16,584 nucleotides of DNA from Candidatus Heimdallarchaeota archaeon (GTDB lineage Archaea > Asgardarchaeota > Heimdallarchaeia > Hodarchaeales > Hodarchaeaceae). Made by a program: the position numbers and the translations under genes. Under the pieces are notes generated by a model. It saw only the letters and a list, made by a program, of their open reading frames with translations. It was not told the origin of the DNA and did not search any database. Of this stretch, positions 5,327 to 5,505 are shown in pieces (position 1 is the first letter of the stretch; each line of letters begins with the position of its first letter). Where the stretch lies: the NCBI GenBank assembly GCA_011364965.1, contig RDOB01000013.1, positions 1 to 16,584 of the forward strand. The letters run 5' to 3'.

Positions 5327-5362
5327 TCCCTTGGCCGTGATTTGAACACGGGACAACTCGGT

Positions 5363-5419
5363 CGCCGCTCATTATTGCTGACACACTCATCACTGTTTCC
5401 TCAGAGGTGCGAACTAGGT
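5363..5419 (-). other. tRNA intron 2, canonical position 37/38, 57 nt
   Basis: Central helix C32-T-G-T35 / GCGG (two G-U pairs), bulges AG|A and CG|A, outer helix CTCGG/CCGAG. The inner helix is weak (relaxed BHL type). Confidence 0.88.
5377..5412 (-). ncRNA. Intron-embedded C/D-type K-turn (K-loop) hairpin; candidate H/ACA-like guide domain
   Basis: Box D CTGA (5404-5401), G-GAAA-C cap, AGT bulge and perfect box C GTGATGA (5393-5387) on stem GCAC-CTC/GAG-(T)-GTGT. The K-turn is directly visible; guide function is inference. Confidence 0.55.
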
Positions 5420-5425
5420 CTACAG

Positions 5426-5475
5426 CCGAGGGCTCTTGGAGGCTTGGATTTATAATCCGAGGGCTCTTCCAGGCT
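5426..5475 (-). repeat. 19-nt imperfect direct repeat (17/19 identical, 12-nt perfect core), period 31
   Basis: AGCCTGGAAGAGCCCTCGG (5475-5457) versus AGCCTCCAAGAGCCCTCGG (5444-5426). Confidence 0.95.
5435..5465 (-). other. tRNA intron 1, non-canonical position 22/23, 31 nt
   Basis: BHB-like motif: central helix TGGA/TCCA, each strand followed by an AG|A bulge and closed by single G-C pairs; internal hairpin GGATT-ATA-AATCC. Removal restores the D-stem. Among the registers allowed by the direct repeat, this is the only one I found that gives a 4-bp central helix. Confidence 0.8.
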
Positions 5476-5505
5476 GAGCTACCAAGGGAATTATTGCATT
5501 AAAGT

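Follow-up and report, generated by a model that had tools for sequence, protein, structure and literature searches.

The tRNA-Tyr gene considered here raises the question of what is done by an intron that sits beside the anticodon, folds into a K-loop hairpin and carries, on both flanks of this hairpin, short sequences complementary to the anticodon arm and to its own first base. The window, i.e. the whole stretch of 16,584 nucleotides that was analysed (contig RDOB01000013.1 of a Candidatus Heimdallarchaeota archaeon), holds this gene among ordinary neighbours, namely genes for a GNAT acetyltransferase, a B12-binding radical SAM enzyme and a DNA ligase. Proteins in MAGs assigned to Hodarchaeota, Heimdallarchaeota and Promethearchaeota resemble the ligase at 57-60% identity, which marks the organism as an Asgard archaeon of the Hodarchaeales type. 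A preliminary description of the window had proposed that the intron encodes a guide for the pseudouridylation of anticodon base U35. We lean towards a reading of this kind, in which intron 2 of pre-tRNA-Tyr would be an atypical H/ACA-like pseudouridylation guide, free of lower stem and ACA box, that is built into its own substrate.

The tRNA-Tyr gene and its introns

The gene is the single tRNA-Tyr gene in the assembly of this genome (G000; assembly 87% complete) and is composed of three exons and two introns.

5327-5488, minus strand: tRNA-Tyr(GUA) gene from C1 to discriminator A73, with two introns; CCA is not encoded
5488-5466, minus strand: exon 1
5435-5465, minus strand: intron 1, 31 nt long, inserted in the D stem after G22
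5434-5420, minus strand: exon 2, A23 to G37
5363-5419, minus strand: intron 2, 57 nt, at the canonical position 37/38; junctions taken from the alignment with relatives
5362-5327, minus strand: exon 3
5324-5319: run of six T, 3' of the gene

In the alignment, the exons agree with those of relatives having fewer introns. The gene was missed in the window by ARAGORN without the intron option and by Rfam at gathering thresholds; ARAGORN with introns allowed detected it and misread the anticodon. Intron 1 is bounded by a perfect 10-nt direct repeat, GAGCCCTCGG (5457-5466 and 5426-5435), which leaves its boundaries ambiguous at the level of the sequence, and the cut after G22 is the only choice that provides a BHB central helix with 4 of 4 pairs (UGGA/UCCA). 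In intron 2, the BHB central helix is formed by C32-U35 and G5368-C5367-G5366-G5365 and is flanked by two 3-nt bulges, A36-G37-A5419 and C5364-G5363-A38, i.e. the arrangement of a BHB intron; the inner helix is weak.

Relatives of the same genus (L003 in G012, L004 in G009 and L008 in G008) do not have the D-stem intron and carry an intron of approximately 27-30 nt within the T-loop instead. Hence, introns outside position 37/38 turn over quickly, whereas the one at 37/38 is retained. Furthermore, partial extra copies of the tRNA-Tyr gene were found 1-2.5 kb from the real gene in some relatives (L007 in G002, L028 in G008, L127 / L017:427-500 in G014). They consist of the 5' part of the gene, sometimes together with half of the intron, and one of them has a mutated anticodon loop and is devoid of the 3' half. 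These copies look like attachment-site duplications originating from elements integrated into the tRNA gene.

The guide-like fold of intron 2 and its conservation

The elements of the hairpin, of the pocket below it and of the competing splice helix are located as follows.

5411-5412, minus strand: putative 5' guide strand UC, directly 5' of the hairpin
5410-5381, minus strand: hairpin of intron 2, eight stacked layers plus two sheared G.A pairs
5403-5410, minus strand: 5' strand of the GA stem, with the sheared pairs above its 8 layers; double-sided changes at 6 of 8 pairs
5390-5402, minus strand: K-loop with G5402-A5401, 9-nt loop 5400-5392 and G5391-A5390; predicted L7Ae site
5381-5389, minus strand: 3' strand of the GA stem, including the bulged U5385
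5377-5380, minus strand: putative 3' guide strand CAGC, directly adjoining the closing pair of the hairpin
5423-5426, minus strand: target strand of the 3' pocket helix (PS1), G34-U33-C32-G31
5421-5422, minus strand: U35 (5422) and A36 (5421), the sole bases free of pairing between the pocket helices, with U35 as proposed target
5365-5368, minus strand: GCGG, intron strand of the BHB central helix, pairing with C32-U35

The layers of the stem follow each other in the order G.U, C-G, A-U, C-G, the bulged U5385, C-G, U-A, C-G and U.U. In the lower part the strand G5410-C5407 is paired with G5384-U5381, and in the upper part C5406-U5405-C5404 is paired with G5386-A5387-G5388, with U5403.U5389 as a non-canonical layer. 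On the 3' side of the hairpin, C5380-A5379-G5378-C5377 is complementary to G34-U33-C32-G31 (5423-5426); on the 5' side, C5411 is complementary to G37 (5420) and U5412 to the first intron base, A5419. The preliminary description had given the stem as GCAC/GUGU, a U bulge and CUC/GAG, with the strands CAGC and UC as its flanks and with exactly U35-A36 left unpaired under it, and all of this is found base for base. With U35-A36 at the foot of the stem, the fold follows the H/ACA rule for placing a target U and the nucleotide 3' of it.

In a single sequence, such a pocket is close to what chance can offer. According to rough estimates, the chance of finding 4 + 2 bp in this one sequence is approximately 0.003 in a fixed register and approximately 0.05 if any U of the tRNA is accepted as target. 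Single-sequence folding of the naked RNA gave results no better than those for shuffled sequences (z = 0.5 and -0.1). It is the comparison with relatives that raises the pocket above chance. The short helices of 4 and 2 bp, which had been mentioned as a caveat from the beginning, make the pocket of this genome the weakest of the 66-sequence set described below.

Relatives were gathered by BLAST, with an exon-anchored pattern and with the covariance model R1, which held the anticodon stem and the hairpin stem only, i.e. the pocket pairs were not built in. R1 detected exactly one locus per genome in 60 of the 83 genomes of the class, the exception being one weak second match to a degenerate copy, and it also detected loci in three other Asgard families; the pattern search contributed the families f17 and f9. 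The resulting comparison set comprises 66 distinct Asgard tRNA-Tyr introns, for which positions were numbered from the kink and the pocket was not fitted.

On the 5' side of the pocket, the pair between G37 and C is retained in 66 of 66 sequences and the pair with the first intron base (i1) equally in all 66, with changing bases (AU 34, UA 22, GC 8, GU 1, CG 1). Shuffled sequences reached a mean of 0.48 for the pairing of i1, and the observed value was attained by 0 of 5000 shuffles. The switches between pair types arose several times independently, as judged by family and genus labels, and four pair types occur inside the genus of G000 alone. A next, third pair is present in 73% of the 66 sequences, and the 5' helix extends to up to 4 bp in relatives, compared with 2 bp in this genome. 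The 5' strand covaries with i1 rather than with A38, and such a guide must therefore act on the unspliced precursor.

On the 3' side, the flank pairs with G34, U33, C32 and G31 in 66, 66, 65 and 66 of the 66 sequences, respectively, and only C/U and A/G changes are seen; because the target strand is invariant, PS1 is able to show one-sided changes only. This helix reaches 5-7 bp in 49 sequences, compared with the 4 bp found here, and in family f17 (L179-L184) an A is kept opposite C32. The hairpin stem covaries as well, with both sides changing at six of the eight upper-stem pairs. Over the whole structure, 91.5% of the cells are paired, versus 22-44% when the partners are slid by 1-3 columns.

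The kink is conserved in its essentials. GA and (R)UGA of the K-loop are invariant across the class in our alignments, and a 10-layer GA stem (8 + 2 G.A) with at most one bulged base occurs in G000 and in all 33 K-loop sequences among the 34 that were parsed from the class, whereas certain other classes possess 7 + 2 layers plus a bulge. In some lineages (L061 in G078, L144-L149 in f14, L179-L184 in f17), a full K-turn, which has a 3-4 bp stem of its own and a 3-nt bulge, stands in place of the K-loop, and in family f14 (L144-L149) the 5' side of the kink often reads AA and not GA. An unbiased pattern search also returned introns without K-turn in f10, f16, f23 and f26, which fold as plain BHB rods. 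Conservation and covariation among relatives had been named as a check of the proposal before, and the K-loop, the length of the upper stem and both pocket strands indeed hold in the 66 distinct Asgard introns.

A pairing in trans with another precursor molecule had also been described (CUAGUUC with GACCUAG, 6 of 7 positions). In G000 this pairing does exist; it depends, however, on a local CUAG palindrome missing in other lineages and was discarded, since it brings no gain over the cis stems.

The BHB helix is conserved, too, with 4 of 4 pairs in 39 and 3 of 4 pairs in 22 of the 66 sequences. It has C32-G34 in common with the guide-like fold and hence competes with the 3' guide strand; the earlier statement that one fold excludes the other was correct. 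Since both folds are conserved, both are under selection, and the precursor has two mutually exclusive states. In the guide-like state, the 5' splice site (the G37/i1 phosphate) lies within a helix, and the central helix used for splicing cannot form. Formation of PS1 moreover requires the opening of G31-C39 and, in relatives, of additional pairs. Calculated nearest-neighbour energies, which ignore the kink and bound proteins, amount to -13.6 kcal/mol for the BHB fold vs -7.9 kcal/mol for the guide-like fold in this genome, and under the same simplification the BHB fold is favoured in four of the five relatives tested. We regard these model values as mild evidence against spontaneous formation of the guide-like state here.

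Among the 11 further tRNAs for which ARAGORN reported introns in this genome, none shows a solid K-loop. The D-arm intron of the tRNA gene G000:C1:10505-10611 contains UGAUGA and a K-loop-like candidate with 7 of 7 stem pairs; one such candidate among the 12 intron-bearing tRNAs scanned is at about chance level.

Relation to known guide RNAs

Guides of the H/ACA as well as the H/ACA-like type require ten stacked layers, counted from the pair that closes the pocket up to the sheared G.A pairs (PMC4652768), and a bulged base is at times stacked to reach this number (Toffano-Nioche et al., PMC4652768). Intron 2 offers ten layers, eight plus the two G.A pairs, and its K-loop with the tandem sheared G.A pairs at 5402-5401 and 5391-5390 is a predicted L7Ae site. 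Its pocket is bipartite, with U35-A36 free and with flanks that pair from the bases adjoining the closing pair onwards, in short duplexes of 4 + 2 bp. The lower stem of 7-9 bp is absent, i.e. there are no complementary strands outside the pocket of intron 2; on the 5' side the pocket is closed by a loop of 3-6 nt, and on the 3' side it continues into the BHB strand. Likewise, this genome has no ACA/ANA box 14-16 nt 3' of the closing pair, which had already been conceded in the preliminary description. Among the 66 sequences, ANA is found at +14 to +16 in 15 and ACA in 2, compared with a background expectation for ANA of 0.215 (approximately 14 of 66).

Without lower stem and ACA box, intron 2 is hence not a canonical H/ACA RNA. 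It fits the atypical H/ACA-like class, with which it shares the single kink hairpin, the 10-layer GA stem and the single-stranded guide flanks as well as the two absences. The latter are not disqualifying, because guides that have neither ACA nor lower stem are active in S. islandicus, where they direct modification in vivo and in vitro (PMC11077068). The proteins of P. furiosus accept these atypical guides (PMC11077068). Moreover, Cbf5 modifies uridines in the guides' own 5' tails, making use of 2-4 bp duplexes that the 3' guide forms with bases upstream of the uridine (PMC11077068).

The atypical guides of Pyrobaculum (sR203-sR210) and S. islandicus (sR109, sR136, sR148, sR563) resemble intron 2 in that they consist of a single K-turn or K-loop hairpin with a 10-layer GA stem, use their 5' and 3' flanks as guide strands and possess neither lower stem nor ACA (PMC4652768, PMC11077068); the modification of the own 5' tail in S. 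islandicus has the same topology as proposed for intron 2 (PMC11077068). However, they are free-standing crenarchaeal small RNAs with mainly rRNA targets (PMC4652768, PMC11077068). The putative guide module described here lies within an Asgard tRNA intron, it would act on a functional base in the anticodon of its host tRNA, and splicing would remove the guide afterwards.

Guides for the same base are known as well. Sso1, Sto1, Sac1, Mse2 and Ape7 are stand-alone H/ACA sRNAs guiding Psi35 on intron-containing pre-tRNA-Tyr (PMC2651775), and sR115 guides Psi35 of pre-tRNA-Tyr in vivo (PMC11077068). As proposed for intron 2, these guides target U35 of tRNA-Tyr(GUA) in the unspliced precursor, and their 3' guide pairs with the anticodon arm and their 5' guide with G37 and intron bases (PMC2651775, PMC11077068). 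They differ in having the classic lower stem and ACA, in being encoded elsewhere and acting in trans, and in forming unusually long duplexes (PMC2651775, PMC11077068), whereas in the case of intron 2 guide and substrate are part of one transcript and the duplexes are short.

Intron-borne guides have been described for another modification. The C/D guide in the pre-tRNA-Trp intron of Haloferax and other euryarchaea (cited in PMC11408192) is, as proposed for intron 2, an L7Ae-binding module directed at its own anticodon region before splicing; it differs in the fibrillarin-Nop5 RNP, in the 2'-O-methylation of C34 and U39, in the full set of C, D', C' and D boxes and in its reported action in trans. 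In eukaryotes, Psi35 of tRNA-Tyr is made by Pus7 on the same base of the same tRNA and with the dependence on an intron at 37/38 that is proposed here (references in PMC2651775); this reaction is protein-only, and eukaryotic tRNA-Tyr introns are without a K-turn hairpin. The tRNA-Tyr intron is the most widely conserved tRNA intron of eukaryotes (PMC12168002).

A pseudouridylation guide inside a tRNA intron was not found described in the full-text literature searched, a non-exhaustive collection, and a 2024 review of intron-dependent tRNA modification lists no intron-borne guide other than the C/D module of tRNA-Trp. H/ACA-like guides themselves are already known; the new aspect would be one that is both embedded in an intron and self-targeting.

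Alternative readings and a possible order of events

G000 encodes a dyskerin-type Cbf5 with DKCLD, TruB_N, TruB_C_2 and PUA domains, Nop10 and two L7Ae-family genes, and a 107-aa protein that matches Gar1 below threshold across nearly the whole profile is probably Gar1. The preliminary description had looked to this machinery, which is present with Gar1 as its probable member, and also to a loss or decay of Pus7/TruD, an expectation that was not borne out. Each of the 41 relatives encodes Pus7/TruD, in nearly every case in a single open frame of approximately 400 aa. In G000 the gene is split over two overlapping frames (G000:C12:327550-328699; locus L031, ORFs 1429-2154 and 2126-2728), which may be an assembly error. 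In addition, motif II is changed in the whole order of G000 (f1, f2), where Ala follows the catalytic Asp (AGLKD-A-x-A) in place of a basic residue. Sulfolobales Pus7 enzymes with a comparable replacement leave U35 unmodified (PMC2651775). Nevertheless, families f3 and f4 have the canonical AGTKDK motif and yet the same K-loop intron, i.e. the Ala does not track the intron module and hence is not evidence for the guide reading.

These observations bear on an alternative that we regard as unlikely, in which the L7Ae-bound three-way fold is the same but serves only to hold U35-A36 single-stranded, as a fixed dinucleotide, for the stand-alone enzyme Pus7, as an archaeal version of the eukaryotic intron-dependent formation of Psi35. 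A protein-only route does exist, as Pus7 is present in the relatives and the G31-G37 context of U35 in this tRNA fits the published Pus7 consensus (PMC2651775), and the coexistence of the canonical motif with the K-loop intron in f3 and f4 is in line with it. The enzyme of P. abyssi makes Psi35, but it requires no intron for this (PMC2651775). Furthermore, no need of Pus7 for a K-turn at a fixed distance of ten layers is known, whereas this spacing is the assembly rule of Cbf5-Nop10-L7Ae, and the order to which G000 belongs carries just the Ala seen in Sulfolobales enzymes that do not modify U35, with the gene of G000 itself being split over two frames. Still less probable, in our view, is that the hairpin and its flanks serve solely for folding or timing; the 5' splice site would then stay hidden until freed by L7Ae or another factor, with no base being modified. 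The position of the G37/i1 phosphate inside a helix of the guide-like fold, the competition with the BHB helix and the conservation of both folds would all be accounted for in this way. However, a mere timing device leaves unexplained the ten layers counted from the G.A pairs, the fact that exactly U35-A36 is free in every lineage, and the restriction of the module to tRNA-Tyr, where it occurs once per genome, compared with the 11 other intron-bearing tRNAs that have no solid K-loop.

It is very improbable that the excised intron is a small RNA acting in trans on some other target, be it as a methylation guide of box C/D type, comparable to the one in the euryarchaeal tRNA-Trp intron, or as a guide for rRNA pseudouridylation. 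Intron-borne C/D guides are already known, and the K-loop of G000 reads CUGA...GUGAUGA, which resembles boxes D' and C'. But the terminal C and D boxes are absent, only one kink motif is present, and the sequences flanking the K-loop, i.e. the would-be guide positions, are paired to each other, whereas a box C/D sRNA has free guides of 10-12 nt upstream of D and D'; the reading as box C/D sRNA was rejected for these reasons. The box-like letters are not conserved either: relatives retain only GA...(R)UGA, for example as UGGA...UGAAAA, and the CUGA/UGAUGA appearance is confined to this genome and its nearest kin. Judged from these retained letters, the kink motif is a general K-loop and not a box C'/D' pair. 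The kink with its G.A pairs had thus been recognized correctly in the preliminary description, but its naming as a C/D K-turn was too specific. Moreover, the 5' flank covaries with the first base of the intron itself, which points to the own precursor as partner. Altogether, the reading as an intron-encoded guide passes the structural and comparative tests, whereas the persistence of Pus7, the energies in favour of the splice fold, the short duplexes of this genome, the required opening of G31-C39, the absent lower stem, the A opposite C32 in f17 and the AA in f14 stand against it.

If intron 2 acts as such a guide, L7Ae would bind the K-loop and Cbf5-Nop10(-Gar1) would dock on the GA stem, whereupon U35, in the same molecule or in another precursor, would be isomerised to pseudouridine. 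Refolding into the BHB structure and splicing would then follow. This scheme predicts a two-state precursor in which modification gates splicing. If true, intron 2 would represent the first pseudouridylation guide within a tRNA intron and the first one designed to act on its own transcript, and H/ACA-like guides without ACA, described in Crenarchaeota, would be known from the Asgard group as well. The tRNA-Tyr intron would also gain a concrete role in those archaea that are most closely related to eukaryotes. A wider version of this reading is possible but rather doubtful: Asgard-wide, the tRNA-Tyr intron might house a self-targeting RNP site of H/ACA-like type at which Psi35 is made in cis, ahead of splicing, and the intron dependence of Psi35 in eukaryotes as well as the near-universal retention of their tRNA-Tyr intron might descend from it, with Pus7 having taken over the chemistry later.

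A further observation concerns the foot of the stem. In alignment A5, the pocket-closing pair (columns 24/92) is nearly fixed as R.U, with G.U in 40, A-U in 23 and G-C in 2 of 67 sequences, and the second pair (columns 25/91) is an invariant C-G (67 of 67), whereas the remaining stem covaries freely. These near-fixed closing pairs may reflect a protein contact beside the target base.
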